Assembly: GCA_947307015.1 (NCBI GenBank) | Contig: CAMZHV010000001.1 | Location: 12,846 to 76,845 of the forward strand | Length of the DNA: 64,000 nt | Source: an uncultured Prevotellaceae bacterium | GTDB lineage: Bacteria; Bacteroidota; Bacteroidia; Bacteroidales; Bacteroidaceae | Direction: 5' to 3' | Shown: one piece after another, positions 11,913-48,875 of the stretch | Position numbering within the stretch: the first letter of the stretch is position 1 | How the letters are laid out: each line of letters opens with the position of its first letter | Notes under the pieces: model-generated | The model's database searches: none | The model's input: only the letters and a program-made list of their open reading frames with translations | What the model was told of the DNA's origin: nothing | Position numbers and translations under genes: made by a program

Positions 11913-13802
11913 ATGGCAGATAGTTTAAACATCCAAGAGCTGGAGCAGGTGGTGGTCCGCTTCTCCGGCGACAGCGGCGACGGTATGCAGCTCGCCGGCA
12001 ACATCTTCTCCACGGTATCGGCTACCGTGGGCAACAGTATCTCCACGTTCCCCGACTATCCCGCCGACATCCGCGCTCCGCAAGGCTCGCTGACGGGTGT
12101 GAGCGGCTTTCAGGTGCACATCGGTGCTGCTCAGGTCTATACGCCTGGTGACCAGTGCGACGTCTTAGTGGCAATGAACGCAGCAGCCTTCAAGACACAA
12201 CTGCGTTATGCCAAGCCTAACGCCACGATCATCATCGACACCGACTCCTTCACGAAGAAGGACCTCGACAAGGCGGAATTCAAGACCGACGACTACATCG
12301 CTGAGATGGGCGTTGACCCCGACCGTGTCATCGCCTGTCCGCTGACCACGATGGTCAAAGACGCGCTGGCCGACACGGGTATGGATGCGAAGAGCGTGCT
12401 CAAGTGCCGCAATATGTTTGCGCTGGGCCTCGTCTGCTGGCTGTTCAGCCGCGACCTGAACGTGGCTTTCAACTTCCTGCGTGAGAAGTTCGCCAAGAAG
12501 CCGGCCATCGCCGAGGCTAACATCAAGGTGATTCAGGCAGGTTACGACTACGGTCACAATACGCACTCCAGCGCGATGAACGTCTATCGCATTGAGTCGA
12601 AGGAAAAGAAGCCCGGACGCTACATGGATATCACAGGCAACAAGGCCACAGCTTACGGCTTCATCGCTGCTGCCGAGAAGGCTGGCTTGCAGCTCTACCT
12701 CGGCTCCTATCCCATCACCCCTGCTACGGATGTGCTTCATGAACTTTCGAAGCATAAGAGCCTAGGTGTGAAGACGGTGCAGTGTGAGGACGAAATTGCA
12801 GGTTGCTCATCGGCTGTTGGTGCAAGCTTTGCCGGTGCATTGGCTGTGACCTCCACCTCCGGTCCTGGCATCTGCCTCAAAAGCGAGGCAATGAACCTGG
12901 CGGTCATCATGGAATTGCCACTCGTCGTCCTCGACGTACAGCGCGGAGGTCCTGCTACGGGTCTCCCCACGAAATCGGAACAGACGGACCTCTTGCAGGT
13001 ACTCTTCGGTCGCAACGGTGAGAGCCCGATGCCTGTGATGGCAGCTCTCTCACCAACGGACTGCTTCGCAGCGGCTTACGACGCTTCGAAGATGGCGTTG
13101 GAGCACATGACGCCCGTCGTGCTCTTGACCGATGCTTTCATCGCCAACGGCAGCGGCGCCTTCAAACTGCCTGACCTCGAAAAGATGCCTGCCATCAAGC
13201 CGCCGTATGTGCCCGAGGAGCTGCGCGGCAGTTGGACGCCTTATATGCGTGCTGAAAACGGCGCCCGCTACTGGGCTGTACCGGGGCGCGAGGGCTTTGA
13301 ACATATTCTCGGCGGACTGGAGAAGGACAACAAGACAGGTGCCATCAGTACCAATCCCGAGAACCACGACCTCATGACGCGTCTGCGTGCTGAGAAGGTG
13401 GCCAAGATCCAAGTCCCCGACCTCGAAGTGGAAGGTGATACCGCAGACGCCGACCTGCTGATAGTAGGCTTCGGTAGCACCTACGGACATCTGCACGCGG
13501 CAATGGATGAACTGAGAGGAGTGGCGGCCCCCCATTCGGCCCCCAGGGGGGCTACGGATGTTAATCCCTATAAAGTGGCTCTTGCACAATTCCGTTATCT
13601 GAATCCCTTACCCGCAAATACAGCAGAGGTACTGAAGCGTTACCCAAAAGTAGTTGTCGCCGAACAGAACATGGGACAATTGGCTTCATATCTTCGCATG
13701 AAAATTGATAATTTTGTTCCCAAACAGTTTAACCAAGTCAAGGGCCAACCTTTCGTTGTTAGCGAATTGGTAGAAGCATTCAAGCAAATATTGGATGAAT
13801 AA
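11913..13802 (+). CDS. korA: 2-oxoglutarate/2-oxoacid:ferredoxin oxidoreductase subunit alpha (fused gamma-alpha type)
   Basis: 629 aa. FSGDSGDGMQLAG..., PITPATD and QRGGPATGLPTKSEQTDL motifs. Carries an in-frame module (VAAPHSAPRGATDV) at 13526-13560. Confidence 0.9.
   Translation: MADSLNIQELEQVVVRFSGDSGDGMQLAGNIFSTVSATVGNSISTFPDYPADIRAPQGSLTGVSGFQVHIGAAQVYTPGDQCDVLVAMNAAAFKTQLRYAKPNATIIIDTDSFTKKDLDKAEFKTDDYIAEMGVDPDRVIACPLTTMVKDALADTGMDAKSVLKCRNMFALGLVCWLFSRDLNVAFNFLREKFAKKPAIAEANIKVIQAGYDYGHNTHSSAMNVYRIESKEKKPGRYMDITGNKATAYGFIAAAEKAGLQLYLGSYPITPATDVLHELSKHKSLGVKTVQCEDEIAGCSSAVGASFAGALAVTSTSGPGICLKSEAMNLAVIMELPLVVLDVQRGGPATGLPTKSEQTDLLQVLFGRNGESPMPVMAALSPTDCFAAAYDASKMALEHMTPVVLLTDAFIANGSGAFKLPDLEKMPAIKPPYVPEELRGSWTPYMRAENGARYWAVPGREGFEHILGGLEKDNKTGAISTNPENHDLMTRLRAEKVAKIQVPDLEVEGDTADADLLIVGFGSTYGHLHAAMDELRGVAAPHSAPRGATDVNPYKVALAQFRYLNPLPANTAEVLKRYPKVVVAEQNMGQLASYLRMKIDNFVPKQFNQVKGQPFVVSELVEAFKQILDE
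13526..13560 (+). repeat. Type-B GC module, left end (GGCCCCCCATTC + GGCCCCCAGGGGGGCT + ACGGATG), in frame in korA
   Basis: Differs at 3 of 35 positions from the corresponding end of the 90-nt element in thrC (28400-28434, reverse complement). Confidence 0.85.
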
Positions 13803-14170
13803 TGAGCTACGACTACCAGACTGCCGATTCTGCTCTATATCACATATTGCGTGAAAATGCTGCATACAATAGGAATCACCCCACAGAAGCAGAAGCACTG
13901 CTTTGGGAATTCTTGGGTGCGGATGGACTGGGAGTTACATTCAAAAGCCAACATATTATAGGTGATTATATCGCGGATTTTGTATGTTTGACTTCCAAGT
14001 TAATCGTTGAACTCGACGGTGGATACCATCAACTCGCACAACAGCAAATAAGTGATGAGCAACGTACAGAATGGTTAGAAAGCAGAGGCTTCAAAATCAT
14101 CCGATTCACAAACGAAGAACTATTTCACAACGTTGACAAAGTATTAGATACGATAAAAGATAATCTATAA
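13802..14170 (+). CDS. DUF559 / Vsr-like endonuclease-domain protein
   Basis: 122 aa. DFVCLTSKLIVELDGGYHQ...EQRTEWLESRGFKIIRFTNEEL matches the DUF559 (PD-(D/E)xK, Vsr-like) pattern. TAATG overlaps with the korA stop and with the korB start. Confidence 0.85.
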   Translation: MSYDYQTADSALYHILRENAAYNRNHPTEAEALLWEFLGADGLGVTFKSQHIIGDYIADFVCLTSKLIVELDGGYHQLAQQQISDEQRTEWLESRGFKIIRFTNEELFHNVDKVLDTIKDNL

Positions 14171-15231
14171 TGAATACTAATTCCAATGCAAACGTAGCCC
14201 CCTCGGGGGCCGAAGGGGGGGCCGCTACTTGGATGGCTTCCGATTATAAGAAAGGGCAGCCGAGGTGGTGCCCGGGATGCGGAGATCATTTCTTCCTGGC
14301 ATCTTTGCATAAGGCGCTGGCCGAAATTGGCGTAGCGCCCAAGGACATCGCCGTCATCAGCGGTATCGGTTGCAGCAGTCGTCTGCCCCATTACATGGCC
14401 ACCTACGGCATGAACACCATTCACGGTCGTGCTGCCGCCATCGCCACTGGTGCGAAGGTGACGAATCCCAAGCTGGATGTGTGGCAGATCAGCGGCGACG
14501 GCGACGGCTTAGCCATTGGCGGTAACCATTTCATCCACGCCAACCGCCGAAACATCGACCTGAACATAATCCTGCTGAACAACCGTATCTACGGTTTGAC
14601 GAAGGGTCAGTACTCGCCCACCAGCCCTCGTGGCTTCGTCTCGAAGTCCAGCCCTTATGGCACTGTCGAGGATCCCTTCCGCCCCGCTGAGCTATGCTTT
14701 GGTGCCCGTGGTCATTTCTTCGCTCGTGCCGTGGCCACTGATGCTCCTGGTACCATCGAGGTACTGAAGGCTGCCCATGACCATAAGGGTGCCAGTGTCA
14801 CCGAGATCCTTCAAAATTGCGTCATCTTCAACAATGGTACGCACGATAGCGTCTATGACAAGGACGGCCGCAAGAAGAACGCCATCTACGTGCGTCACGG
14901 CGAGAAGCTCGTCTTTGGCGAGAACAACGAATTCGGTCTCGTGCAGCAGGGCTTTGGTCTCAAGGTCGTGGAGATTGGCAAGGACGGCTACACGCTCGAC
15001 GACGTTCTTGTCCACGATGCACACTGCGAGGACAACACGCTGCAGCTGAAGCTCGCCCTCATGGGCGATGGCGACGGTTTCCCCATCGCCCTCGGCGTCA
15101 TTCGCGATGTGGCAGCGCCCACCTATGATGATGCTGTCACCGCACAGATCGCAGAGGTCAGCGCCGCGAAGAAGTATCACAACTTCGCCGAGCTCCTCGA
15201 AACAAACGATATTTGGGAAGTTCGCGAGTAA
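14170..15231 (+). CDS. korB: 2-oxoglutarate/2-oxoacid:ferredoxin oxidoreductase subunit beta (TPP-binding)
   Basis: 353 aa. WCPGCGDH and GDGDGLAIGGNH motifs. An alternative in-frame ATG at 14233 lies just after the type-B module. Confidence 0.9.
   Translation: MNTNSNANVAPSGAEGGAATWMASDYKKGQPRWCPGCGDHFFLASLHKALAEIGVAPKDIAVISGIGCSSRLPHYMATYGMNTIHGRAAAIATGAKVTNPKLDVWQISGDGDGLAIGGNHFIHANRRNIDLNIILLNNRIYGLTKGQYSPTSPRGFVSKSSPYGTVEDPFRPAELCFGARGHFFARAVATDAPGTIEVLKAAHDHKGASVTEILQNCVIFNNGTHDSVYDKDGRKKNAIYVRHGEKLVFGENNEFGLVQQGFGLKVVEIGKDGYTLDDVLVHDAHCEDNTLQLKLALMGDGDGFPIALGVIRDVAAPTYDDAVTAQIAEVSAAKKYHNFAELLETNDIWEVRE
14194..14223 (-). repeat. Type-B GC module, right end (GTAGCCCCCTCGGGGGC + CGAA + GGGGGGGCC)
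   Basis: Inverted partner of 13526-13560. Resembles the other end of the thrC element (28345-28373). Read as VAPSGAEGGAA if korB starts at 14170. Confidence 0.8.
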
Positions 15232-15238: not shown

Positions 15239-15366
15239 ACAACGAATTTCACGAATTAAACGAATTCAGGTTGCGCAGTGTAAGAATGATCTTCGAATAG
15301 GTGTCATTCGTTATCAATCTTTGCTACACATAGAAAGTAATTCGTAAAATTCGTGTAATTCGTTGT
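15239..15366. repeat. AT-rich inverted-repeat element; each arm is three ACGAATT-type repeats
   Basis: Left arm acaacgaatttcacgaattaaacgaattc (15239-15267). The right arm (15337-15366) is its reverse complement, 26/30 by hand alignment. 69-nt spacer. Confidence 0.7.
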
Positions 15367-21157: not shown

Positions 21158-21916
21158 TCAAGAGGCTTCTGCTTTCAGCAAGGCTTCAGCGATGATGAGG
21201 TCGAAAGGTGTGGTGATCTTGATATTCTCACGGTTGCCATCGACGAGGGTGACGGGATGCCCCAGGGCTTCGACGACAGAGGCATCGTCGGTAAAGGTGT
21301 CGCAGTAGGGCTGCTTGTAGGCTTGGAGAAGGAGGGAGTGCGTGAAGACCTGTGGGGTTTGGACAAGGCGCAGCTTCGAGCGGTCAATGGTAGCGGACAC
21401 CCCCTCCCCAGTGTGAGAGGGAAGAAGTTGGCGCACGGTCTCGACGACAGGGACGACGGGGACGACGGCGGCGTGCTCACGGGCAGCTTCGAAACAACGA
21501 CGGATAACATCAACGGAGACGAAGGGGCGCACGCCGTCGTGGACAGCAACCAAACTCCCCTCCCTCACGGGGGCGGGGGAGAGGCTTCTTAACCCGTTCT
21601 TTACACTATGAAACCGTGTTTCGCCGCCATCGACGATAGTATGTGGCAGGGTGAAAGCGTGCTGACGGCAGAGGTCGCGCCAAAAGTCCTGCTGGTCATG
21701 TGGCAGGACAAGCACGATGCGTATGCCAGAAATAGCACGCTCGAAAGCTTCAAGCGTGTGCATCAGCACGGGACGTCCCCCGATAGGAAGGAACTGCTTA
21801 GGCAGGTCGCTGCCCATCCGCAGTCCTTTGCCTCCGGCAACGATGATGACAGACTCTCCCCCCGCCCTCCCTATTAGGGAGGGAGTAGATTGTTTTGCTA
21901 TTGGATTATCTTCCAT
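21158..21916 (-). CDS. ispD: 2-C-methyl-D-erythritol 4-phosphate cytidylyltransferase
   Basis: 252 aa. [43 protein letters not shown] and LVQTPQVF motifs. The N-terminal 22 aa are encoded by repeat spacer + arm. Confidence 0.9.
21555..21585 (-). repeat. Short type-A variant in frame in ispD
   Basis: Reverse complement GCCTCTCCCCCGCCCCCGTGAGGGAGGGGAG. Translated as [10 protein letters not shown]. Confidence 0.6.
21852..21885 (+). repeat. Type-A module (left arm of the DJ-1|ispD doublet), translated in ispD
   Basis: GACTCTCCCCCCGCCCTCCCTATTAGGGAGGGAG. 33/34 identical to the reverse complement of 21951-21984. Confidence 0.9.
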
Positions 21917-21950
21917 AAAAAGATAATAATCAGTTCTTGTTAGGTAACCG

Positions 21951-21984
21951 CTCCCTCCCTAACAGGGAGGGCGGGGGGAGAGTC
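21951..21984 (-). repeat. Type-A module (right arm of the DJ-1|ispD doublet)
   Basis: CTCCCTCCCTAACAGGGAGGGCGGGGGGAGAGTC. Ends 5 nt from the DJ-1 stop codon. Confidence 0.9.
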
Positions 21985-21989
21985 TGTTT

Positions 21990-22532
21990 TTATCTATACA
22001 ACATCCCCTGTCTGAGCGCGTCGGCGGTGGCCTTGTCCTTCATCATCTCAACGATGGTATAGCCGAACTCGAAGACGGCGGCTGGACCTTTACCGGTGAT
22101 GTATTGTCCGTCAACTTCGACGAGGGCACCGGTGCAGGTGGCTCCCTTGAGCTCGTCCTCGAAGCCGGGATAGCAGGTGGCACGCTTGCCGTCGAGCAGA
22201 CCGATACGTCCAAGCACGAGGGGGGCGGCACAGATAGCTGCTATGGGACGTCCGATGTAGGCGTGGTCGCGGACACGTTCCACGAGGGCGTGACATTCGG
22301 CGAAGTTCTTTGCACCAGGCATACCGCCGGGCAGCACAAGCAGTTCAGCATCGAAGAAGTCGATATCCTTGAGCAGGGCATCACATTCGACGCGGATGCC
22401 ATGAGCACCCGTGATGATGCGCTCGTCGGTGATAGAAACGATCTGCAGGTCGAGGCCTGCGCGGCGGATGATGTCTGCAGTGCCGAGGGCTTCTATTTCC
22501 TCAGTGCCAGTGGTAAAGAATAGATAAATCAT
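21990..22532 (-). CDS. DJ-1/PfpI (ThiJ) family protein
   Basis: 180 aa. LVLPGGMPGA and AAICAAP (nucleophile-elbow Cys) motifs. Confidence 0.9.
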   Translation of the reverse strand: MIYLFFTTGTEEIEALGTADIIRRAGLDLQIVSITDERIITGAHGIRVECDALLKDIDFFDAELLVLPGGMPGAKNFAECHALVERVRDHAYIGRPIAAICAAPLVLGRIGLLDGKRATCYPGFEDELKGATCTGALVEVDGQYITGKGPAAVFEFGYTIVEMMKDKATADALRQGMLYR

Positions 22533-22586: not shown

Positions 22587-23348
22587 TTATTTCAAACAAG
22601 CAAGATATCTCTTGATAGTCTCTTCGAGGCCAAGGTAAAGGGCGTCGCAGATGAGGGCGTGACCGATGCTCACCTCGTCTGTCCAGGGTATCTGCTGGTG
22701 AAAGTAGGCGAGGTTGTTGAGGCTGAGGTCGTGGCCGGCGTTGAGGCCGAGGCCGAGGTCGCGGGCTGTTTGGGCGGCGCGGATAAAGGGGGCGATGGCG
22801 GCAGCACGGAGGCGATTACCCTCGGAAGAACCCTCGGAAACCGTGATGGCGGCCATTGCGGCGGCGTAGGGCTCGGTGTAGAGCTCCACGCGGTCAGCAC
22901 CGGCACGGGCAGCGTAGTCAACCATCGCTTCGTCGGCGTTGACGAAGATGCTCACGCGGATGCCAGCGGCCTTGAAGCGGGCTGTGACGTCGGTGAGGAA
23001 GTCGAGGTGTGTGCGGGTGTCCCAACCGTGGTTCGAGGTGATCTGGTCATGGCCGTCGGGCACGAGGGTGACCTGGGTGGGGCGGTTCTCAAGGACGAGG
23101 GCGATGAATTCCGAGATGGGATTGCCCTCGATGTTGAACTCCGTTGTCAGCAGCGGCTTCAAATCGCGCACGTCCTGATAGCGGATGTGGCGCTGGTCAG
23201 GACGGGGATGTACGGTGATACCCTGTGCGCCGAAGCGCTCGCAGTCCTGTGCCACACGCAGCACGTCGGGATTGTTACCGCCGCGTGCATTGCGGATGGT
23301 GGCCACTTTATTGATGTTTACGCTGAGTTTTGTAGGCATAACAGTCAA
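22587..23348 (-). CDS. pdxJ: Pyridoxine 5'-phosphate synthase
   Basis: 253 aa. [29 protein letters not shown] and NAGHDL motifs. The start could be the Met 3 codons downstream. Confidence 0.93.
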
Positions 23349-23590: not shown

Positions 23591-23641
23591 CTCCTGTGGG
23601 CTGCCTCGTCAGCCATTTTCCCCTTTTTGATTTCCCCGCCT

Positions 23642-24526
23642 ATGCGCAAGCTTCGTTTTGCCCTCTTTGGTAATGTTTTTCAAGCCAAAAAATCATCGTC
23701 CGTGCAGAAGCTCCTCTGCCTGTTGGAAGAGCGGGAGGCTGATTTGCTGGTCGATGCCAACTTCTATCATTTCCTTATCGATGACCTACAGATTGCCATG
23801 CCGCCGTCGGCACGCGTGATCAACGATGATGTCTTCGATGCGGATGTGCTCATCTCCATGGGCGGCGACGGCTCGTTCCTTGAGGCTGCTCGGCGCGTGG
23901 GCGACAAGGGCATCCCCATTGTCGGCGTGAACATGGGCCGTTTAGGTTTCTTGGCGGACATCGTCCCCGAGGACATCGAGACCGTCATACAGCAGATCTA
24001 CGACGAGGACTGCTGTGTCGAGGAGCGCTGCGTGTTGCAATTATCATACGACCAGGGTGCGCCCGAAGGCTATCCATACGCGCTCAACGAGGTGGCTGTG
24101 CTCAAGCGCGAGCTCTCGTCGATGATTTCCATCCGCGTGGATATCAATGGCGAATACCTGACCACATATCAGGCTGACGGTCTGATTATCAATACGCCGA
24201 CGGGCTCTACAGGTTATGCCCTCTCTGTCGGCGGACCTATCATGCAGCCTGGCAGCCGCACGCTGGGCCTGGTGCCTGTGGCGCCTCATTCGCTGACGGT
24301 GCGTCCGTTGACGCTGACTGATGATGCGGTGATCACGCTCACGGTGTCATCACGCAACCATCGCTTCCTCGTGGCGCTCGACGGTCGCAGCGAGCAATGC
24401 AGTGAGGACGTGCGGCTGACTATTCGTCGCGCTCCCTACACCGTCAAAGTGCTTAAACGCCCAGGTCAGAGCTTCTTCCGCACACTAAGAACAAAGCTCA
24501 TGTGGGGAACGGATGTTAGGGAATAA
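23642..24526 (+). CDS. nadK: NAD kinase
   Basis: The track ORF starts at a TTG; the first ATG gives MRKLRFALFGN. GGDGSFL and TPTGSTGYALSVGGPI motifs. Confidence 0.9.
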   Translation: MRKLRFALFGNVFQAKKSSSVQKLLCLLEEREADLLVDANFYHFLIDDLQIAMPPSARVINDDVFDADVLISMGGDGSFLEAARRVGDKGIPIVGVNMGRLGFLADIVPEDIETVIQQIYDEDCCVEERCVLQLSYDQGAPEGYPYALNEVAVLKRELSSMISIRVDINGEYLTTYQADGLIINTPTGSTGYALSVGGPIMQPGSRTLGLVPVAPHSLTVRPLTLTDDAVITLTVSSRNHRFLVALDGRSEQCSEDVRLTIRRAPYTVKVLKRPGQSFFRTLRTKLMWGTDVRE

Positions 24527-24555
24527 CACCCACCCCTGCCTCTACCTTTCGGGAG
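24527..24555 (+). repeat. Degenerate C-tail module (left arm of the nadK|ABC doublet)
   Basis: CACCCACCCCTGCCTCTACCTTTCGGGAG. Fills the gap between the nadK stop and ATG 24556. Confidence 0.5.
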
Positions 24556-26340
24556 ATGTGTTATTACCATAATAATATGACAGGAAAAGGAAACAATCAG
24601 CCAAAGGATACTGCTCCCCTCCCCGCAAAAGATAAGCGGGGGGGTGGGTCTGCTTATTTGACACGACAGCTGATAGCCTGGTTCTGGCATATTTTCATGC
24701 AGGTGAAGCTGCAGTCGTTCATCAATGCGATGAGCGGCATTATCCGTGTGGCGCTTGATTTTGCTTTCATCTGGGCCACGAAGGTGACCATCGATATAGC
24801 CACAGGCAATTTCTCGCCTTCATCCTTTATCCCCAAACCCTCCACCTTATTCAGTGCTGGCGTTCTGCTCATCAGCATCATGGTGCTGCAGATGGCTTTG
24901 GGCTATCTAAGGCGCTGGATTGCTGCACTTTTGGGCGTTGAGGCGCAGAACAGGATGCAACGCCACATCTTCGAGCATCTGTTGCGCAGCGAATGGCACG
25001 GTAAAGAGCGCCGTCACAGCGGCGATGTCCTCAACCGTTTGATCAGCGACAGCACCACGGTTGTCACCGTGGTCACGGATACGGTACCGCAGGCGTTGGC
25101 CGTGCTGGTGCGCCTCGTGTGTGCATTCTTTTTTCTTTACTCCATGGATGCCATGCTGGCGGTGGGCGTTATTGTCATCCTGCCGCTCTTCATCCTGCTC
25201 AGCCGCCTCTATGTCCATCGGATGCGTGCCATCACGCGTGAAGTGCGGAAGACCGACAGCCGCGTGCAGGCCATCTTGCAGGAGAGCGTGCAGCACCGCC
25301 TCGTACTGAAGACCTTGGAGCGTGTGCCGCTCCTTGTCCAAGCGCTGTCTGATTTGCAAGCCACACTACGCAGTCAAGTGCGCCACCGTACGCTCTTCTC
25401 CTCCACTTCCAACCTGGTGGTTAACATCGGTTTCGGTGCAGCCTATCTCTTCACCTTCCTCTGGAGTGTGAACCGTCTTTCTGATGGCACCATCACCTTT
25501 GGCATGATGACCGCCTTCATCCAGTTGTGTGGTCAGATACAAGGCCCCTTCCGCGAACTGACACGTTTCATCCCGGCCATCATCAGCAGCTTTACGTCAG
25601 CCGAACGTCTCATGGAGCTCGAAGAAACGCCCCTCGAGGAAGACGGTGAGCCTATTCGTTTCGAACGCGGTGCAGGCATACGTCTCACTGATGTCACTTT
25701 CGCCTATGACGACTACAGCCGTACCATCCTCAGCCATGCCACCTACGATTTTGCGCCCGGCTCCACAACAGCCGTCCTGGGCGAGACGGGGGCGGGCAAG
25801 ACAACACTGCTCAGGCTGGTGCTCGCCCTGCTAAAACCGCAACAGGGGACGGTGGAGATCTACGAACCTGCCACAGGGCGCGCCGTACAGGTCAGCGCCC
25901 GCACACGTTGCAACCTCGTCTATGTGCCACAAGGCAATTCACTCTTCAGTGGCACCTTGCGCTGGAACCTGCAGATGGGTAAGCCCGAGGCGACGGACGA
26001 AGAGCTGCATGAGGCGTTGCGCTTGGCCTGTGCCGATTTCGTGCAGACGTTGCCCGATGGCCTCGACACGCGCATCGGCGAGGGTGGCGCAGGTCTCTCT
26101 GAAGGACAGGCGCAGCGCATAGCCATCGCCCGTGCTCTCCTGCGTCAAGGTTCGGTGTTACTGCTCGACGAAGCCACCAGTGCCCTCGACCAGCAAACAG
26201 AGAAGCAACTGATAGAGAACCTTGTGGAACACCATAGCCACCTCTCCGTGAAGCCTACGCTCATTTTCATCACTCACCGCCCTGCCATCGTGAACTACTG
26301 CTCGCAGGTCATCACGTTTAAGAAATGTTCAGCTTCCTGA
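24556..26340 (+). CDS. ABC exporter, fused permease/ATPase (MsbA-like)
   Basis: 594 aa. Six-TM ABC_membrane region, Walker A GETGAGKTT, LSEGQAQRIAIARAL, Walker B LLLDEATSALD. The N-terminus contains a repeat arm, so the start is uncertain. Confidence 0.85.
   Translation: MCYYHNNMTGKGNNQPKDTAPLPAKDKRGGGSAYLTRQLIAWFWHIFMQVKLQSFINAMSGIIRVALDFAFIWATKVTIDIATGNFSPSSFIPKPSTLFSAGVLLISIMVLQMALGYLRRWIAALLGVEAQNRMQRHIFEHLLRSEWHGKERRHSGDVLNRLISDSTTVVTVVTDTVPQALAVLVRLVCAFFFLYSMDAMLAVGVIVILPLFILLSRLYVHRMRAITREVRKTDSRVQAILQESVQHRLVLKTLERVPLLVQALSDLQATLRSQVRHRTLFSSTSNLVVNIGFGAAYLFTFLWSVNRLSDGTITFGMMTAFIQLCGQIQGPFRELTRFIPAIISSFTSAERLMELEETPLEEDGEPIRFERGAGIRLTDVTFAYDDYSRTILSHATYDFAPGSTTAVLGETGAGKTTLLRLVLALLKPQQGTVEIYEPATGRAVQVSARTRCNLVYVPQGNSLFSGTLRWNLQMGKPEATDEELHEALRLACADFVQTLPDGLDTRIGEGGAGLSEGQAQRIAIARALLRQGSVLLLDEATSALDQQTEKQLIENLVEHHSHLSVKPTLIFITHRPAIVNYCSQVITFKKCSAS
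24614..24650 (-). repeat. C-tail module variant (right arm of the nadK|ABC doublet), in frame
   Basis: CTCCCCTCCCCGCAAAAGATAAGCGGGGGGGTGGGTC. Translated as APLPAKDKRGGGSA. Confidence 0.6.
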
Positions 26341-27342: not shown

Positions 27343-28799
27343 TGCTGGAGGAGGAAAGCTTTGAAGTCGGCAAAATCCTTGCTCATGGCGACCGACTTCT
27401 TCTCGCCGCGCATGAAAGCCTGCAGCTTTTCGGGGATGGGAAGATCGATGCCGAGGATGCGGTCTACGGTGTCCTTGAATTTGGCGGGATGAGCGGTCTC
27501 AAGGAAGACGCCGACTTCGCCGTCTTGCAGCTGCTCTTTCAAGGCGCGATAACCGCACGCGCCGTGAGGATCAAGGATATAACCCGTGCGAGCATAACAA
27601 TCACGCATTGTCTCGGCAATCTGGTCGTCGGTGTAGGTGGCGCCGGAGATAAGGGGCCTCTCCCCCAACCCCTCCCCCGAGAGGGAGGGGAGTGGCTGTG
27701 CATAGCCTCTTTTACTTAACACTTCCATGACATCCTCACGACTGTAGAGGTCGAGGATGCGGGCGAAATTTGAGGGATCACCGACATCCATTGCATTGGC
27801 AATGGTCTGTTTCGAGGCTTTCGGCGTATACACACCTGTCTGGAGGTAGTTGTAGAACACGTCGTTGGCGTTGTTCGCCGCAATGAAACGTTTCACGGGC
27901 AGCCCCATGACGTGGCCGAACAGTGCCGAACAGATATTGCCGAAATTGCCGGAGGGGACGCAGATGACACAATCGGCTGCCCCACCGCCAACCCCTCTTC
28001 TCGTCAGGGAGGGGATAAGTTGCGCGTAAGCATAGAAATAATAAAACGCCTGCGGCAGGAAGCGGGCCACGTTGATGCTGTTGGCCGAGGTGAGGCGCAT
28101 GTGGGTATTCAGCTCCTGATCCATAAACGCCGACTTCACCAGTGCTTGGCAGTCATCGAAGACGCCATCGACCTCAATGGCCGTGATGTTTTGGCCGAGC
28201 GTCGTGAACTGACACTCCTGAATGGGCGACACCTTACCCTTCGGATAGAGCACATAAACATGTATACCCTCCACGCCGAGGAAGCCGTTGGCCACAGCCG
28301 AACCAGTGTCGCCGGAAGTGGCTACGAGTACATTAACCATGGAAGCCCCCCCTACTGCCCCCGAGGGGGCTTCTATTGTTTTGCGATTAGAGGACTTTAC
28401 ATCCGTAGCCCCCTCGGGGGCTGAATGGGGGGCCAACATATACTGAAGCAGGCGTGCCATAAATCTCGCACCCACATCTTTAAAAGCCAGCGTGGGGCCG
28501 TGGAAGAGCTCGAGGGCATAGATATTGTCCTCGACTTTCACGACAGGACAGTCGAAGGAGAGGGTGTCATAGACGATACGACGGAGGGCATCGGCTTCGA
28601 CATCTTCGCCGAAGAAGGCATCAGCGACGCGATAGGCCACCTCCTGGAATGTGAGGCCTGCCATTTCGTCCCAGAACGATTCAGGCAGTTGCTTGATGAC
28701 TTCGGGCATATACAGGCCGCGATCTTCGGCAAGGCCGCGGACGACAGCATCACGCAAAGTAGCGCGGGCAGCGGTATGGTTGGTGGAGTAGTAGAGCAT
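27339..28799 (-). CDS. thrC: Threonine synthase
   Basis: Start moved to MLYYSTNH. FKDVGARFMARLL, ATSGDTGSAVANGF and VPSGNFGN motifs. Three in-frame repeat insertions. Confidence 0.93.
   Translation of the reverse strand: MLYYSTNHTAARATLRDAVVRGLAEDRGLYMPEVIKQLPESFWDEMAGLTFQEVAYRVADAFFGEDVEADALRRIVYDTLSFDCPVVKVEDNIYALELFHGPTLAFKDVGARFMARLLQYMLAPHSAPEGATDVKSSNRKTIEAPSGAVGGASMVNVLVATSGDTGSAVANGFLGVEGIHVYVLYPKGKVSPIQECQFTTLGQNITAIEVDGVFDDCQALVKSAFMDQELNTHMRLTSANSINVARFLPQAFYYFYAYAQLIPSLTRRGVGGGAADCVICVPSGNFGNICSALFGHVMGLPVKRFIAANNANDVFYNYLQTGVYTPKASKQTIANAMDVGDPSNFARILDLYSREDVMEVLSKRGYAQPLPSLSGEGLGERPLISGATYTDDQIAETMRDCYARTGYILDPHGACGYRALKEQLQDGEVGVFLETAHPAKFKDTVDRILGIDLPIPEKLQAFMRGEKKSVAMSKDFADFKAFLLQQ
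27656..27692 (+). repeat. C-tail + hairpin module variant in frame in thrC
   Basis: GCCTCTCCCCCAACCCCTCCCCCGAGAGGGAGGGGAG. Translated as PLPSLSGEGLGERP. Confidence 0.65.
27979..28015 (+). repeat. C-tail + hairpin module variant in frame in thrC
   Basis: GCCCCACCGCCAACCCCTCTTCTCGTCAGGGAGGGGA. Translated as PSLTRRGVGGGA. Confidence 0.6.
28345..28434. mobile_element. 90-nt type-B doublet (REPIN/MITE-like), in frame in thrC
   Basis: Two inverted type-B ends (28345-28373 and 28400-28434) separated by 26 nt. 30 codons (PHSAPEGATDVKSSNRKTIEAPSGAVGGA) inserted between LQYMLA and MVNVLVATSGDTG. Confidence 0.8.
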
Positions 28800-28811
28800 A
28801 CTATAAAAAAA

Positions 28812-28844
28812 CCACCCCAACCTTCCCTGTGAGGGAGGGGGTGG
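28812..28844 (+). repeat. Type-A variant (arm of the apgM-like|thrC doublet)
   Basis: CCACCCCAACCTTCCCTGTGAGGGAGGGGGTGG. Lies 12 nt upstream of the thrC ATG. Confidence 0.7.
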
Positions 28845-28861
28845 AATGATTTGTATAATGG

Positions 28862-30172
28862 TTATTGATTATCTAATGTATCTACTCCCTCCCTCACAGG
28901 GAGGGTAAGGGGTGGGTCTGTCATAAACAACTTAATGAATTCATCGCCTTCGATGAGACCATAGGCGCCTTCGCGGGCAGCATCCTCGTCGAAGGTCTGC
29001 ACACTATCTGGCTCTATGCCGGGGTAGTAGATGGCAAAGGGGATGGGCTCGGCGGTGTGAGTGCGTAGCTCGCAGGGCGTGGGATGGTCGGGTAAAAGAG
29101 CAATGGCGAGGTCATCCGTCATTTCGAACGCATGAAGGATAGGCTGAATGAGCCGATGGTCGAGGTCTTCGATGGTCTGGAGCTTGAGGGGGACTGAACC
29201 ATCGTGACCAGCCTCGTCGCTGGCTTCGACGTGGAGATAGACGAAGTCATCACCGCTGCGAAGGGCCTCGATGGCAGCCTGTGCCTTACCCTCGAAGTTA
29301 GTGTCATAGAGACCTGTAGCACCAGGGACGTTGATGACGCGCAACCCGGCATAATGTCCGATGCCGCGGATGAGGTCTACGGCCGTGATCACGGAGCCAC
29401 GACGAATCTGCGGGAAGCGTTCGGTGAGCGGCACCATCTGCGGACGATAGCCGCCGCCCCATGGCCAGATGCTCGAAGCCATATCTTTACCCTCGCGCGC
29501 GCGTTCTTTATTTAATTCATGCAAAGGCAGAAGTTCTTGGGAACGGCGAATGAGGTCGCATAGCAGGTCGGCGGTCTCAGCGGGGGACAGGACCTCTCTT
29601 TGCTTCCCCTCAAAGGGGAGGGTGGAATCTTCAGCGCAGGTATCTGCCGAGGGGACCTTGTCGCGCCATGTCTGAAGGGGCACATCGTGTGGCGGTGTAC
29701 ATTTAAGGTGCTTGTTGCCGCCTTTGATGACCAACAGGTGACGGTACTGCACGCCCGTATAGAAATGTACGCGGTCGTTGGCTAAGTGTTCGTTGAGGTA
29801 TCGGATGAGGACGTCGCCTTCCTCCGTTTCGAGGCGTCCGCAGGAGTGGTTCTTGATGATGTCACCCTCGATGCAAACGAGGTTACAGCGTAGGGCAAGG
29901 TCACCTTCTTCCAGTTCCACGCCTATGCTGGCGGCTTCCAGCGGTCCACGACCCTCGTAAACGACGTGTTGGTCGTAGCCCATGATGCTGCTGTTGGCCA
30001 CTTCACTACCCGGATGAAAACCATCGGGAATGGTCTTCAACAATCCGCAACGACCATTACGCGCCAACCAGTCCATGGCGGGCGTGTCGGCGTATTGAAG
30101 GAGTGTCTTGTCACCGAGTGAAGGCACGTGCCAGTCGGCCATGCCGTCGCCAAGGATGATTAGATGTTTCAT
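28862..30172 (-). CDS. Cofactor-independent phosphoglycerate mutase-like (apgM family) protein; probable non-canonical homoserine kinase of the thr operon
   Basis: 436 aa. MKHLIILGDGMAD... metalloenzyme-superfamily N-terminus. Sits between thrA and thrC. The C-terminus runs into a repeat arm. Confidence 0.8.
   Translation of the reverse strand: MKHLIILGDGMADWHVPSLGDKTLLQYADTPAMDWLARNGRCGLLKTIPDGFHPGSEVANSSIMGYDQHVVYEGRGPLEAASIGVELEEGDLALRCNLVCIEGDIIKNHSCGRLETEEGDVLIRYLNEHLANDRVHFYTGVQYRHLLVIKGGNKHLKCTPPHDVPLQTWRDKVPSADTCAEDSTLPFEGKQREVLSPAETADLLCDLIRRSQELLPLHELNKERAREGKDMASSIWPWGGGYRPQMVPLTERFPQIRRGSVITAVDLIRGIGHYAGLRVINVPGATGLYDTNFEGKAQAAIEALRSGDDFVYLHVEASDEAGHDGSVPLKLQTIEDLDHRLIQPILHAFEMTDDLAIALLPDHPTPCELRTHTAEPIPFAIYYPGIEPDSVQTFDEDAAREGAYGLIEGDEFIKLFMTDPPLTLPVREGVDTLDNQ
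28885..28918 (-). repeat. Type-A module (arm of the apgM-like|thrC doublet), forms the C-terminus of the apgM-like protein
   Basis: Reverse complement GACCCACCCCTTACCCTCCCTGTGAGGGAGGGAG. Translated as DPPLTLPVREGV. Confidence 0.85.
29592..29624 (+). repeat. Hairpin module variant in frame in the apgM-like gene
   Basis: CCTCTCTTTGCTTCCCCTCAAAGGGGAGGGTGG. Translated as STLPFEGKQRE. Confidence 0.5.
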
Positions 30173-32700: not shown

Positions 32701-34656
32701 TCAAGAGGCAGCGGCCTCCTGCGGCGTCGAAAGCGCGATTTCCTCTTCCTCCATCATCTGATGGAGCACGCGGCCCACGACGCTGTCGGGGATGTCTGGG
32801 AAATGGAAGTCGAGGAATGATGTCGGCTTCTGCTCGGCAACGAAGGCGAGGATGCGCTGGCGCACGAAAGCGTCGTCAATGCGCGGCAGCGGGCTCCGCT
32901 CGGTGCAGTTGTCGCAATGTCCGCAGTCTTGAGCATCCTTCTCGCCGAAGTAACGCAGGAGGTAGCGGCTGTGGCATTCCGAGGTCTCGAGGTAGCCGAT
33001 CATCGTCTGAATGCGTTGTTCGAGTTCGCGCTTGCGGTCGCGATAAACGGATGGCGGCAGCACGATGTCGTCACTCTCGACGCGCCGCTGTCTGAAGGTG
33101 ATATAGGGGATGAACTTACGCGGCACGAACTGCAGGATATGCCGGCGGCTGAGCTCCACGAGCTGCTCGCTGACCTCTGCCTCACCTACGCTTAGGGCGT
33201 GGGCTATCTCGCCTTCGTCGATGTAGGCATACTCGCTGAAGATGCCTGTACACGTCCGCAGCAGGTGCTGCAACACGCGCTCCATCAGGGGCGGAAGATG
33301 ATAGGTGTAGAGCTCTTCGCGGTGGCAGCTCATCATCACGCGGCTGTGGTTTTCCTCCGCATCGGCCCATTCGATATAGCCGGCTCGCGACAGCAGCTGC
33401 AAGGCGTTGTAAGCCCGCACGGGAAAATGGTGGAACGTGCGACAGAACTCCTCCAGATTGAACTCTCGCGTGATGCCAAAGCCGTCGCCCATGGCTAACT
33501 GCAGGAAATAGCAGGCATCCTCGTAGACCTTCCTGACGTAATCCTCTGGCGGGTAGGTGTCTTCGATGCGGCGGCGTAGCACAGCGATGGAGCGGCTGTC
33601 GTAGAGAAGCACGGCATGAGCCTGCTGGCCATCGCGGCCGGCACGCCCTGCCTCTTGGAAATACGCTTCGGGGGAGTCGGGGACGTCGGTGTGGACGATG
33701 AGCCGCACGTCGGCCTTGTCAATACCCATGCCAAAGGCGTTTGTGGCCACCATCACGCGGATCTCGCCGTGCTGCCACGCCGCCGCCCGCTCGTTCTTCT
33801 CGCGATTCGTCAGGGCGGCATGGTAGTGAGTTGCCGTGATGCCCTGCGACACGAGCCACGAGGCCAGTTCGCGCGTAGCCTGACGGCTGCGGGTATAGAC
33901 GATGGCAGAACCGGGCACGCGGATAAGCAATTCCTGCAGCTCCTGTTCACGCGACTGTCGGATGCGGCGGACGGAATAGATCAGGTTCTTGCGTTCGAAG
34001 CTCATCCGCTTGACATTAGGCTCACGGAAGCCTAATTGCCGTTGGATATCTTCGACGACGGGCGGTGTGGCGGTGGCCGTCAGGGCAAGCACTGGCGCGT
34101 CGGGCAGCAGCTTGCGGATTTGGGAAATCTCGGTGTAAGACGGGCGGAAGTCGTAACCCCATTGCGAGATGCAGTGGGCCTCGTCCACCGTGATGAAGCT
34201 TACCTGCATGTGTCTGAGCTTGGCCTGAAAAAGCTCCGAGGACAGGCGCTCGGGCGAGACATAGAGGAATTTGTAATTGCCAAAAATGCAGTTCTCCAAC
34301 GCCGTAATCACCTCGTCGCGCGTCATGCCCGTATAGACGGCAGTGGCCTTGATGCCTTTCTCGCGGAGGTGCATCACCTGATCCTTCATCAAGGAGATCA
34401 GCGGGCTGATGACCAGGCACAACCCCTCCTGCGCCAATGCCGGCACCTGAAAGGTGATGCTCTTGCCGCCGCCCGTAGGCATAAGCCCTAAGGTATCCCT
34501 TCCCGCCCCAATACTCTCAATGATGTCCTGCTGAATACCACGGAAGGAAGAGAAACCGAAATAATGGTGTAAGATAGAACAATAAACAGACTCTCCCCCC
34601 GCCCTCCCTATCAGGGAGGGAGCAGTCACATGCGCCAGTTGCTCCTTTCCGTTCAT
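32701..34656 (-). CDS. recQ: RecQ-family ATP-dependent DNA helicase
   Basis: 651 aa. FRGIQQDII (Q motif), MPTGGGKS, DEAHCISQWGYDFRP, ATNAFGMGIDK and QEAGRAGRDG motifs. The N-terminal 23 aa are encoded by spacer + repeat arm. Confidence 0.92.
   Translation of the reverse strand: MNGKEQLAHVTAPSLIGRAGGESVYCSILHHYFGFSSFRGIQQDIIESIGAGRDTLGLMPTGGGKSITFQVPALAQEGLCLVISPLISLMKDQVMHLREKGIKATAVYTGMTRDEVITALENCIFGNYKFLYVSPERLSSELFQAKLRHMQVSFITVDEAHCISQWGYDFRPSYTEISQIRKLLPDAPVLALTATATPPVVEDIQRQLGFREPNVKRMSFERKNLIYSVRRIRQSREQELQELLIRVPGSAIVYTRSRQATRELASWLVSQGITATHYHAALTNREKNERAAAWQHGEIRVMVATNAFGMGIDKADVRLIVHTDVPDSPEAYFQEAGRAGRDGQQAHAVLLYDSRSIAVLRRRIEDTYPPEDYVRKVYEDACYFLQLAMGDGFGITREFNLEEFCRTFHHFPVRAYNALQLLSRAGYIEWADAEENHSRVMMSCHREELYTYHLPPLMERVLQHLLRTCTGIFSEYAYIDEGEIAHALSVGEAEVSEQLVELSRRHILQFVPRKFIPYITFRQRRVESDDIVLPPSVYRDRKRELEQRIQTMIGYLETSECHSRYLLRYFGEKDAQDCGHCDNCTERSPLPRIDDAFVRQRILAFVAEQKPTSFLDFHFPDIPDSVVGRVLHQMMEEEEIALSTPQEAAAS
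34589..34629 (+). repeat. Type-A module (arm of the recJ|recQ doublet), translated in recQ
   Basis: GACTCTCCCCCCGCCCTCCCTATCAGGGAGGGAGCAGTCAC. 39/41 complementary to 34689-34729. Confidence 0.9.
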
Positions 34657-34688
34657 TAACTATCAAAAAATGAAAACAAATCTTGAAG

Positions 34689-34729
34689 GTGACTGCTCCC
34701 TCCCTTTTAGGGAGGGCGGGGGGAGAGTC
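34689..34729 (-). repeat. Type-A module (arm of the recJ|recQ doublet)
   Basis: GTGACTGCTCCCTCCCTTTTAGGGAGGGCGGGGGGAGAGTC. Ends 6 nt from the recJ stop. Confidence 0.9.
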
Positions 34730-34735
34730 TTCTCC

Positions 34736-36457
34736 TTATTCCTCGCTCGGCCTGATATCCTCAATCTGCAACTGCACCTCGCCCCGCTTATGCGTGTTCT
34801 CCTCCACCGTGTAGCAGATGTCGAACGCCCGGCGACTCTTGATGAAGCGAGCCTGCGAGCTCTGGCCGAAAGCGATGCCGCTGACGACGTTGTGGCTCTT
34901 GTTGTCCACCAGCTCCAGCTTGATGTGTTCCTGGTGATGACCTACCACCTTGCTGGTGCCGTAGTCGTACACATGCTCCGTGCAGAACAGCGGCTTCTGA
35001 TTGTCCGGGCCGAAAGGTTGGAACTTGCGCAGGTCGTTGAAGAAGCGATGGCTGATGTCCTTGAAGTCCAACATTCCGTCGATATTCAGGTCGGGCTGGA
35101 TCTGCGATTCGAGGATGTTCTCATTGACATATTCCTCGAAGCGGCGCTTGAATTCGGGCACGTTCTCCACCTTCATCGATAGACCGGCAGCGTAGGTGTG
35201 ACCGCCGAAGTTCTCTAAGAGGTCGCGGCAGCTGTCGATGGCGCGGTAGACATCGAAGCCTCCGACGGAGCGTGCCGAGCCCGTGGCCATATCGTCGGTA
35301 CGGGTGAGTACGACAGCCGGACGGCAGTACACCTCTGTCAGTCGCGAGGCCACGATGCCGATGACGCCTTTGTGCCACTCCTCGTTGTAGATGACGATGG
35401 CGCGCTGCTCGTGGTTGTGGTCGAGCTTCTCCACGATGTCGTTGGCTTCCTGCGTCATCTCCTTGTCGAGGTCTTTGCGCTGGTCGTTATAGGCGTTAAT
35501 CTGCAGGGCCATGCGATGTGCACGGTACGGGTCACGCTCCACAAGCAGGGCCACGGCTTCGCTGCCCTTCTGCATACGTCCCGAGGCGTTGATGCGCGGG
35601 CCGATCTTAAAAATGATGTCGCTCATCGTGATCTCGCGATCCAGCAGGCCGCAGATCTCGATGATAGCCTTCAGCCCCACGCTCGCCTTCGAGTTGATCT
35701 GCTTCAGGCCGTGATAGGCCAGCACGCGGTTCTCGCCTAAGATAGGTACGATGTCCGAGGCGATGCTCACGGCGCACAAGTCCAGCAGCGGCACCAACTG
35801 CGAGAAGGGGATACCGTTGTCGATGGCAAAAGCCTGCATCAGCTTGAAGCCCACACCGCAGCCCGACAGGTGTTCGTAGGGGTAAGTGGCATCTACGCGC
35901 TTGGCGTTGAGGATAGCCACGGCGGGCGGCAGCTCATCATCCGGCACGTGGTGGTCGCAGATGATGAAGTCGATGCCTAACTCCTTGGCGTAGGCAATCT
36001 CCTCGTTGGCCTTAATGCCACAGTCCAGGACGATGATAAGTCCCACGCCCGTCTCATGAGCGAAGTCCACGCCCTGTTTGCTCACGCCATACCCCTCCTC
36101 GTAGCGGTCGGGGATGTAAAAATCGATGTTGGTTGTGAACTGTTGCAGGAAACGGTAGACCAAAGCTACCGCCGTGCAACCATCCACGTCGTAGTCTCCA
36201 TACACTAAGATACGTTCCTTGCGTCCGAGAGCCAGGTTCAGCCGATCGACAGCAACCCGCATATCACGGAAAAGAAAAGGATCAAGCAGTTCGTTGAGCT
36301 GCGGCCGGAAGAAACGTCGCGCCTCCAACGAATTGGTGATGCCGCGATCCAGTAGTAGCAGGCCGAGAGCGGGGTGAATACCCACGTCGGCGGCCAAGGC
36401 CTCAGCTGCTTCCTGTCGTTCGGGTGTAGGAGGTTCGTAATTCCATTTGTAGTTCAT
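34736..36457 (-). CDS. recJ: Single-stranded-DNA-specific exonuclease RecJ
   Basis: 573 aa. DHH motifs (VYGDYDVDG, DCG, ICDHH) and DHHA1 (GGHTYAAG). Confidence 0.93.
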   Translation of the reverse strand: MNYKWNYEPPTPERQEAAEALAADVGIHPALGLLLLDRGITNSLEARRFFRPQLNELLDPFLFRDMRVAVDRLNLALGRKERILVYGDYDVDGCTAVALVYRFLQQFTTNIDFYIPDRYEEGYGVSKQGVDFAHETGVGLIIVLDCGIKANEEIAYAKELGIDFIICDHHVPDDELPPAVAILNAKRVDATYPYEHLSGCGVGFKLMQAFAIDNGIPFSQLVPLLDLCAVSIASDIVPILGENRVLAYHGLKQINSKASVGLKAIIEICGLLDREITMSDIIFKIGPRINASGRMQKGSEAVALLVERDPYRAHRMALQINAYNDQRKDLDKEMTQEANDIVEKLDHNHEQRAIVIYNEEWHKGVIGIVASRLTEVYCRPAVVLTRTDDMATGSARSVGGFDVYRAIDSCRDLLENFGGHTYAAGLSMKVENVPEFKRRFEEYVNENILESQIQPDLNIDGMLDFKDISHRFFNDLRKFQPFGPDNQKPLFCTEHVYDYGTSKVVGHHQEHIKLELVDNKSHNVVSGIAFGQSSQARFIKSRRAFDICYTVEENTHKRGEVQLQIEDIRPSEE

Positions 36458-45237: not shown

Positions 45238-45297
45238 TAAACTAATTAACAATTTAAAAGAATGACCCTAATAGCCTCCTTTACTCTAAACATTCAA

Positions 45298-45330
45298 CTC
45301 TCCCCATATAGGGGGAGCGGGGAGGGGGTC
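45298..45330 (-). repeat. C-tail module variant (right arm of the DUF4492|cydA doublet)
   Basis: CTCTCCCCATATAGGGGGAGCGGGGAGGGGGTC. Ends 10 nt before the cydA ATG. Confidence 0.6.
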
Positions 45331-45340
45331 TTTTAAACCT

Positions 45341-46900: not shown

Positions 46901-46965
46901 TCACCTCTAAGAATCGATTCAAACTACTCATCTCTCATCTTTAATCTCTCATCTTTTCTCATATT

Positions 46966-48853: not shown

Positions 48854-48875
48854 AGATTATAGGTCAAGGGAAAGG

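Follow-up and report, generated by a model that had tools for sequence, protein, structure and literature searches.

The described systems closest in form to the repeat considered here are palindromes translated within proteins, transposase-mobilised hairpin repeats, miniature transposons and homing endonuclease genes. The repeat is a pair of inverted arms at the junction of a DJ-1/PfpI family gene and ispD, in a 64,000-nucleotide stretch of DNA (hereafter the window) from an uncultured Prevotellaceae bacterium (assembly GCA_947307015.1, contig CAMZHV010000001.1, positions 12,846 to 76,845). An initial annotation of the window, made from the sequence alone, had placed the ispD start codon in the loop between the two arms. 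Our analysis suggests that the arms are very probably the terminal inverted repeats of a non-autonomous, gene-less mobile element of rumen Bacteroidaceae and Prevotella, and that this element supplies the ispD start. The chief interest of the family lies in its association with DUF559 endonuclease genes and in its portable start codon.

Rickettsia palindromic elements (RPE), reportedly described by Ogata and colleagues in 2000, and intragenic repetitive extragenic palindromic sequences (REPs) are short palindromes, single or in inverted dimers, which lie in frame in protein genes. Each lengthens its host protein by 10-40 residues, at a terminus or within a loop. Their lengths and frames are translatable, and in some cases they decorate an N-terminus. 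The ispD family shares these properties, with in-frame, stop-free insertions, doublets of 117 or 120 nt and most units in long open frames. Unlike RPE, it is hosted by Bacteroidota (Bacteroidaceae), is apparently unrelated in sequence, has a full-length form that encodes a DUF559 nuclease, brings along an ATG whose spacing from the right arm is fixed, and prefers operon junctions; we do not claim that it belongs to the RPE.

REPINs and BIMEs, which are mobilised by REP-associated tyrosine transposases (RAYTs), are GC-rich hairpins found in high copy number as inverted doublets with a less conserved spacer, and in their presumed autonomous form the units flank a protein gene. The ispD family resembles them, being a short GC-rich imperfect palindrome with many copies that often form inverted doublets. 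However, the flanked gene encodes a PD-(D/E)XK DUF559 nuclease, not a Y1 (IS200/IS605-like) RAYT, and the copies are mostly coding, not extragenic. REPs have a conserved GTAG or CGTC tetranucleotide at one unit end (Di Nocera et al. 2013, PMC3733652), whereas in the CCCTCCC-type units of the ispD family the four bases before the stem vary (CTAC, CCGC, CTGC, TTAC) and GTAG occurs only in GCCCCC-type variants. Membership of the RAYT/REP group was rejected because the tag is not conserved and the partner gene is DUF559 in 11 of 11 loci outside the window. No RAYT gene was seen in the loci examined, although whole genomes were not searched.

Miniature transposable elements with inverted repeats (MITEs; Correia/NEMIS in Neisseria, ERIC, RUP), some of which alter how neighbouring genes are expressed, are non-autonomous derivatives with terminal inverted repeats that are co-transcribed with flanking genes, and mycobacterial interspersed repetitive units (MIRUs) sit between operon genes, with start and stop codons that overlap those of their neighbours. 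The ispD copy is similar to both. Its inverted ends bound a short core that derives, through internal deletion, from a longer element with an open reading frame (ORF), the homology of the leader being significant and the arms identical. In contrast to MITEs and MIRUs, its arm is translated into the host protein and an essential gene takes its start codon from the element; the partner is the PD-(D/E)XK nuclease, which is no recognised transposase, and a DDE transposase partner is not known.

The DJ-1/ispD junction also recalls the cycle of gain, decay and loss of homing endonuclease genes, with patchy occupancy of one site, a series of decay states and preserved host function. The nuclease is related to a characterised homing endonuclease, in that the DUF559 profile matches the catalytic domain of the Vsr-like EDxHD group (I-Bth0305I, 3R3P), and occupancy is sporadic, with empty sister alleles and the same left boundary after GML(Y). 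Unlike homing endonuclease genes, the ispD family has no intron or intein, host function being saved by a supplied stop, start and translatable end, and it has long terminal inverted repeats; its spread over many unrelated loci is transposon-like, not homing-like. In the literature we found no description of this family in Prevotella or Bacteroidaceae, of a link between DUF559 and inverted repeats or of a built-in start, which is absence of evidence only.

The inverted repeat at the DJ-1/ispD junction

On the minus strand of the window, the gene order is pdxJ (22587-23348), DJ-1/PfpI (21990-22532), ispD (21158-21916) and a 229-aa ORF. The junction is made up of the following parts.

21990-22532, minus strand: DJ-1/PfpI family gene; stop codon 21990-21992, 5 nt from the core arm
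21951-21994, minus strand: putative left terminal inverted repeat, the 5′ (upstream) arm in the mRNA; R1 covariance model, 51.6 bits
21917-21950, minus strand: spacer leader (CGGTTACCTAACAAGAACTGATTATTATCTTTTT), homologous to the 25-45 nt leader 5′ of the DUF559 gene in full-length elements
21914-21916, minus strand: ispD ATG in the AT-rich spacer, the sole canonical in-frame start, apparently element-borne
21886-21913, minus strand: spacer linker, ispD codons 2-10 and base 1 of codon 11
21842-21885, minus strand: putative right terminal inverted repeat, the downstream arm; core unit 21851-21885, read as ispD codons 11-22
21158-21916, minus strand: ispD coding sequence, 252 aa; IspD domain at residues 23-248

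The arms at 21852-21885 (GACTCTCCCCCCGCCCTCCCTATTAGGGAGGGAG) and 21951-21984 are complementary at 33 of 34 positions, with a single mismatch, and a repeat finder lengthened them to 21842-21885 and 21951-21994 (44 nt, 91%) around the 65-nt spacer. The core unit of the left arm (AGACTCTCCCCCCGCCCTCCCTGTTAGGGAGGGAG) occupies 21951-21985, with weaker complementarity up to 21994 that spans the DJ-1 stop, a TAA about 5 nt upstream of the arm. The GC content is 29% in the spacer and 66% in the arms. The ispD reading frame encodes a 22-residue extension and then the conserved core, with no other ATG, GTG or TTG in frame ahead of the core. Residue 23 is also where the IspD domain of Pfam starts to match (position 3 of the 221 in the profile, E 1.3e-55). 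The initial annotation was therefore accurate on the layout of the locus, namely the near-complete complementarity of the arms, the 5 nt between the upstream arm and the DJ-1 stop, the ATG within the spacer, and the 22 codons of spacer and arm before a core that has no Met of its own.

We compared this junction with those of IspD homologs from metagenome-assembled genomes of rumen Bacteroidaceae and Prevotella; the best locus among GTDB representatives has 79% identity to the window. The usual N-terminus of these homologs is M and 2-3 residues straight before [AVC]I[IV]VAGG. At the nearest element-free loci (L001, L002, L005, L007, L009 and L088), the DJ-1 stop and the ispD start overlap as ATGA. 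In one example, DJ-1 ends in GMLWSEVR and IspD begins with MSDYAIIV, and the N-termini are of the type MSDY, MSES or MKY before [AV]IIVAGG. As these relatives have the ATGA overlap and zero intergenic DNA, the two arms and their spacer, approximately 150 nt in the window, represent an insertion; the empty site of DJ-1/ispD type is TTATGGGAGAGTCTGCC. The C-terminus of DJ-1 in the window is shortened, ending in GMLYR where relatives without the element end in GMLWSEVR, and from these alignments the insertion took away both the DJ-1 tail and the native ispD start. Judged by the same comparison, the first 22 amino acids and the start codon of ispD stem from DNA foreign to the gene. This supports the earlier suggestion that an essential gene has its start supplied between the arms, given the ancestral overlap and the lack of an alternative canonical start.

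Repeat-encoded N-terminal extensions are present in many other IspD homologs (e.g. MEANSSLQSQVTTPLPREGGGGGASF). The junctions of L081, L082, L084, L086 and L136 share a left boundary after GML(Y); in each, the spacer holds an ATG in frame and no stop interrupts the right arm. Six element-bearing junctions were examined in all, and every one can be read without a stop from the spacer ATG to the IspD core. In L081 and L082 the DJ-1 stop falls within the element. L136 keeps the linker ATG and the right arm with the left arm gone; its IspD N-terminus is of the same kind and a long stem is impossible. L046 and L075 have hairpins that lie wholly upstream of an intact native ispD start. The junction thus exists as a doublet (window, L081, L082, L084, L086), as a right arm only (L136), as a tail-like sequence only (L087, ATGGGAGAGTCT, MGES; L003, ATGAGGGGTGGGTCT) and as an empty ATGA overlap; the tail-like sequences may be remnants or pre-existing target sequence. 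In a neighbour-joining tree of the IspD core, carriers are dispersed among non-carriers and several carriers have element-free sisters. A single ancient insertion with vertical inheritance (one gain, no loss) was rejected on account of this scatter. The extension is derived, not ancestral to IspD, and is patchily common to many related species.

Comparison of the filled L082 junction with the empty L087 junction revealed no clear direct repeat of the kind that a target-site duplication would leave, and the empty site already holds GGGAGAGTCT, which resembles the right end of the element. Both element termini contain GAGTC (AGACTC...GAGTCT; 21848-21856 and 21980-21988 in the window), and G(T/A)GAGTC(C/T) stands before the IspD core at L085, L087, L088, L089 and L230. 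The GAGTC motif may be a target or recognition motif of the nuclease, or a remnant of past occupancy.

Other repeats occupy the same junction elsewhere. In another Prevotella (L048, approximately 3790-4010), a different inverted-repeat family (ATGAGCCCCCAAAGTTAGGGGTTGGGGGTCTGAACAG ... reverse complement) lies between DJ-1 and ispD, with in-frame ATGs in its spacer and a translated arm. Short arrays of tandem 6-8 nt units (e.g. GGACAAT, CGAATT), each followed by its reverse-complement array and forming long hairpins, occur at the DJ-1/ispD junction in L011, L013, L015, L023 and L030, and at 54218-54312 and 15239-15366 in the window.

Public gene calls start IspD at the Met of GLRMG in P0041, P0058, P0060, P0072, P0095, P0104, P0109, P0110, P0113, P0119 and P0120. 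Calls of this kind drop the nucleotide-binding motif. In the two loci checked, the real start lies further upstream: the frame of L084 is open from its ATG despite the internal-Met call, and in L085 the start is the upstream overlapping ATG. Judging from these loci, repeat insertions or overlapping starts mislead gene callers. For annotation it matters that some IspD homologs are called from an internal Met and that peptides encoded by the repeat are scattered through rumen Prevotella-like proteomes.

The repeat family and its DUF559-encoding full-length form

The arms are copies of a dispersed repeat family, not a structure specific to this locus. The 22-mer AGGGAGGGCGGGGGGAGAGTCT has five copies in the window and none in 100 shuffles, and 11 copies of the hairpin core CCCTCCCT-NNN-AGGGAGGG were counted where 0.28 would be expected, numbers far above chance. 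A covariance model trained on 12 window units found approximately 20 units in the 64-kb window. Each arm consists of an 8-bp hairpin and a G-rich tail (C-rich on the other strand). The units in the window are mostly in frame within ORFs; those in gene orientation encode (T/A)PSL(I/T)GRAGGES or APSGAxGGA, and those in the opposite orientation can encode APHSAPEGATD. With arms recurring at other junctions and inside genes, the stem-loop is not a feature dedicated to ispD, a point that the initial annotation could not see. An Rfam scan of the whole window returned one tRNA only, with no RNA family at the repeat.

The exact 35-nt unit was found in at least 120 metagenome stretches; since a perfect match to that unit was the criterion for choosing these loci, young copies are over-represented in the census. 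The first 80 loci contain 91 exact units; for 73 of them, an open frame of 150 codons or more runs across the unit, and the PSLxGRAGGES frame is used in 45 of 48 same-orientation copies. Doublet spacers are of discrete size, mostly 45 or 48 nt, which together with 36-nt arms gives 117 or 120 nt, both multiples of three. After removal of redundancy, 130 exact units remained. In 62 of them the PSL frame stays open for 100 codons or more downstream, and 24 of the 62 stand at the 5′ end of their frame. For 19 of these 24 copies, 9-14 codons separate the right arm from the first ATG upstream (10 codons in ispD and about the same in recQ); for internal copies, the nearest in-frame ATG is 11-303 codons away. 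Fixed spacing between an ATG and the right arm is therefore a regular property of the family and not a peculiarity of ispD, which argues against the start codon being a lucky accident.

Just ahead of several units the frame encodes the end of a DUF559 protein, which is part of a longer form of the element. Full-length elements measure 485-536 bp and are ordered as left arm, AT-rich leader (CGGTTACCTTTCAAGAAT...), a gene for a DUF559/Vsr-like endonuclease of 121-122 aa, an ATG-bearing linker and right arm. In the linker, of 24-55 nt, the ATG overlaps or follows the DUF559 stop (...TTCGAATGAATACA...), and the right arm reads (A/T)PSLxGRAGGES, in frame into a downstream host gene such as fmt. The window has its own DUF559 gene.

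13802-14170, plus strand: gene for a 122-aa DUF559/Vsr-like endonuclease, flanked by korA-like and korB-like genes (2-oxoacid:ferredoxin oxidoreductase subunits), with TAATGA overlaps at both ends
14188-14230, plus strand: GCCCCC-type right arm, 18 nt 3′ of the DUF559 stop, read as the N-terminus of the downstream gene (MNTNSNANVAPSGAEGGAA)

A further arm lies in frame within korA (13519-13561), 240 nt upstream of this gene. With the 122-aa ORF as query, nine further DUF559 genes were detected in the arm-selected loci, and in all nine cases the gene lies between two arms, with 25-45 nt separating it from the left arm and 24-55 nt from the right. Two loci chosen by DUF559 homology alone, L210 (68% identity) and L220, have the same layout with their own arm variants and an ATG(AAT...) that overlaps the DUF559 stop; the gene lies between a regulator and an AMP-binding enzyme in L210, and between a CLC channel and fmt in L220. 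In 11 of 11 loci outside the window, the gene that the arms flank is DUF559.

The Pfam match to DUF559 has an E value of 1e-33. A profile of the family hits two PDB structures, 3HRL (3.8e-23) and 3R3P, which is the homing endonuclease I-Bth0305I (7.8e-8). Residues D55, D59, E70, D72 and H76 are invariant among 28 diverse sequences, and the fold is that of a PD-(D/E)XK, Vsr-like nuclease. Vsr, DUF559 and the I-Bth0305I homing endonuclease were previously placed in one clade (Steczkiewicz et al. 2012, PMC3424549). The type of arm appears to track the DUF559 lineage, with GCCCCC-type arms beside the window copy, CCCTCCC-type arms beside the L094 type and intermediate arms in L210. As DUF559 is the sole gene between the arms and the arm type appears to vary with its lineage, we infer that the DUF559 protein mobilises the element.

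When the DUF559 gene was removed in silico, full-length elements aligned to the doublet at ispD. The ispD copy retains the leader, the ATG and the linker, and lacks the endonuclease gene. An alignment score as high as that between its 34-nt leader (21917-21950) and the leaders of L099, L132 and L140 was reached by none of 1000 shuffles. The linker (21886-21913) is in a position equivalent to that of the full-length linkers. A proposed homology of this linker to that of the window's own DUF559 element was not significant and was dropped.

We propose that an element inserted at, or homed into, the ATGA overlap of DJ-1 and ispD, and that the insertion would have clipped the final DJ-1 codons and the native ispD start. 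The endonuclease gene may have been lost afterwards, or a short form may have inserted directly. The leader, ATG, linker and right arm would then remain, ispD would be translated from the element ATG, and the right arm would be read as a Pro/Gly/Ser-rich tail before the first beta-strand of the IspD nucleotide-binding fold. A stem might form on the co-transcript, leaving the AT-rich start region in its loop, and would not be needed for expression.

Several observations weigh against this proposal or against parts of it. The similarity of the ispD linker to the full-length linkers is weak, its score being reached by 203 of 2000 shuffles, and is too weak to choose between an ispD ATG that derives from the DUF559 start and one that derives from the linker start; on the alignments it is element-borne either way. 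The spacer ATG is taken as the ispD start because there is no other canonical start and the frame is conserved, which is the basis for our inference that it is used in vivo. No DUF559 gene or full-length element was found at the DJ-1/ispD junction of the relatives examined. Identical DUF559 proteins in differing contexts were not found either; each exact protein occurs at a single locus across samples, and recent transposition of full-length copies is therefore not demonstrated. We know of no transposase that is a lone PD-(D/E)XK nuclease. Lastly, relatives without the element already have G(T/A)GAGTC(C/T), a sequence similar to the element tail, right before the IspD core. This sequence blurs the precise position of the right boundary and makes a target site hard to tell from a remnant.

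More tentatively, the family could represent an undescribed class of selfish element in Bacteroidota, in which a DUF559/Vsr-like nuclease is bounded by low-harm hairpin inverted repeats and serves as the mobilising or homing enzyme; we regard this as possible, with the balance slightly against it. The low-harm design, if true, would consist of ends that are stop-free in the preferred frames, short derivatives with lengths divisible by three, and a start codon to restart the downstream gene. Such an element could colonise operon junctions and the coding sequences of essential genes such as ispD, recQ, fmt, thrC and cydB, and the large Bacteroidales DUF559 family ("endonuclease domain-containing proteins") would gain a testable function. 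On the proposal above, an essential gene and several housekeeping genes within the same 64 kb now rely on a selfish element for translation signals and N-terminal residues, suggesting a route by which selfish elements invade tightly packed operons without host death. If the DUF559 link holds, this would be a new compact mobile element, with possible uses as a small site-recognising nuclease or as a strain-tracking marker in rumen metagenomes.

The predicted stem and competing explanations

The pdxJ-DJ-1-ispD order is conserved and the ancestral genes were coupled by ATGA, suggesting that DJ-1 and ispD are probably co-transcribed, with both arms on the mRNA. A stem would form on such a co-transcript: the predicted fold has a minimum free energy of -97.7 kcal/mol (z = -10.9), with the arms approximately 0.9 paired and the AUG, in the loop, approximately 0.77 unpaired. 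About 34 nt upstream and 28 nt downstream of the AUG lie within the loop, and initiation there is physically plausible in this model. A scan for sigma-70-type promoters and terminators near the spacer gave nothing that exceeded shuffle expectation. The best Bacteroidetes-type -7 box found by eye (TATCTTTT) ends 1 nt before the ATG and so cannot serve it, and an internal promoter is not supported. The very stable stem with its AUG loop that the initial annotation described is thus predicted if both arms are co-transcribed; the arms are generic terminal inverted repeats of the family.

One alternative is that this stem of 34-44 bp is a selected regulatory RNA, which might expose an AU-rich start in its loop for Shine-Dalgarno-independent initiation, uncouple ispD from DJ-1, or act as a site for RNase III or for 3′-end stability. 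The stability of the predicted stem, the mostly unpaired AUG and the low GC content of the spacer relative to the arms would suit such a role, and for L081, L082 and L086, whose arm sequences differ, the predicted folds likewise pair the distant arms and leave the AUG in the loop. However, the same arms and stems occur wherever the element sits, even wholly within coding sequences, which explains the stem by the element ends, and matching arm changes between species follow the family consensus of each genome, not the locus. The hairpins of L046 and L075 leave the native start outside altogether, and an RNase III cut would separate the AUG from the body of ispD, which speaks against a processing role. 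L136 in turn has the ATG and right arm with no left arm, so that ispD expression is unlikely to need the stem. We consider selection for a regulatory RNA improbable; the stem is probably a by-product of inverted ends, any regulatory role being unproven and probably secondary.

A second alternative holds that the spacer ATG is not a real start, that translation begins at a non-canonical codon near the core (e.g. ATC or ATA) or by reinitiation after DJ-1, and that the repeat is untranslated. This leaves unexplained the preference for one frame and the ATG at 9-14 codons, and the frame from the spacer ATG is open in every element-bearing junction that we examined. Many REPs annotated in the 5′ ends of ORFs may indeed be non-coding (Di Nocera et al. 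2013, PMC3733652), and some gene callers place the IspD start at an internal Met (P0041, P0095 and others). That Met, however, comes after the conserved nucleotide-binding motif GGKGLRMG, and the truncated calls are caller artefacts where checked. We regard an untranslated repeat as very unlikely.

Least credible of all is a phase-variable switch in which the arms flank an invertible segment that turns ispD on and off, which we rejected because the flipped spacer provides no ATG, the off state should be lethal (to our knowledge, the ispD pathway is the only isoprenoid route in Bacteroidota), 65 bp is very short for recombinase-mediated inversion, a single orientation is seen in five orthologous junctions, and the repeat family is dispersed inside genes. 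Such switches are common in Bacteroidales, and a start codon is carried here between inverted repeats. DUF559 proteins are also listed among the gene families in which predicted programmed inversions are enriched (Milman et al. 2023, PMC9881135), an enrichment that fits with DUF559 genes being bracketed by inverted repeats.

Other copies in the window and minor observations

Further copies of the family in the window were located as follows.

34584-34734, minus strand: doublet at the recJ/recQ junction; recJ stop 34736-34738 just past the left arm, recQ ATG 34654-34656 in the spacer, right arm translated
46860-47043, plus strand: diverged doublet at the cydA/cydB junction; left arm forms the cydA C-terminus, likely cydB ORF start 46966 in the spacer, right arm at about codon 13
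28803-28923, minus strand: doublet at the junction of a phosphoglycerate-mutase-like gene and thrC; left arm forms the upstream C-terminal tail (PPLTLPVREGV), stop in the spacer, right arm just 5′ of the thrC ATG
28341-28441, minus strand: complete doublet inside thrC, in frame, with GCCCCC-type arms (LAPHSAPEGATDVKSSNRKTIEAPSGAVGGAS)
2037-2079, minus strand: single exact unit, in frame in a 1434-aa ORF; covariance model and exact match
45179-45335, no strand assigned: doublet of diverged units, intergenic, upstream of cydA; covariance model
21552-21594, plus strand: decayed unit inside ispD, in the opposite orientation, in a surface-loop region; encodes 11 residues; covariance model
21391-21425, minus strand: weak decayed unit inside ispD, 16.4 bits, E 0.028

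The recJ/recQ layout mirrors that of ispD, with the right arm read as the same peptide, so that RecQ carries it too, and this doublet has an orthologous doublet in L109. The diverged cydA/cydB doublet follows the same layout, ORF 46966 being a probable cydB.

The IspD loop at residues ~108-120 (21552-21594) is an insertion hot spot. The decayed unit there (SLSPDPSPVREGS) is common to many homologs, and whole doublets of 30-50 residues occupy the loop in P0023, P0031 and P0004.

At 24521-24655, a weak inverted pair of units (E ~0.8-1) lies at the junction of a NAD-kinase-like ORF (23627-24526; label inferred from an orthologous relative) and the next gene. The N-terminus of that next gene reads ...APLPAKDKRGGGS, and the pair may be what is left of an old copy with the same layout.

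A near-perfect palindrome (33 nt, 94%, 2-nt loop) at 48787-48854 is unrelated to the repeat family. It sits between two plus-strand ORFs (46966-48228 and 48225-48803) and a minus-strand ORF (48876-51557), and is probably a bidirectional terminator.

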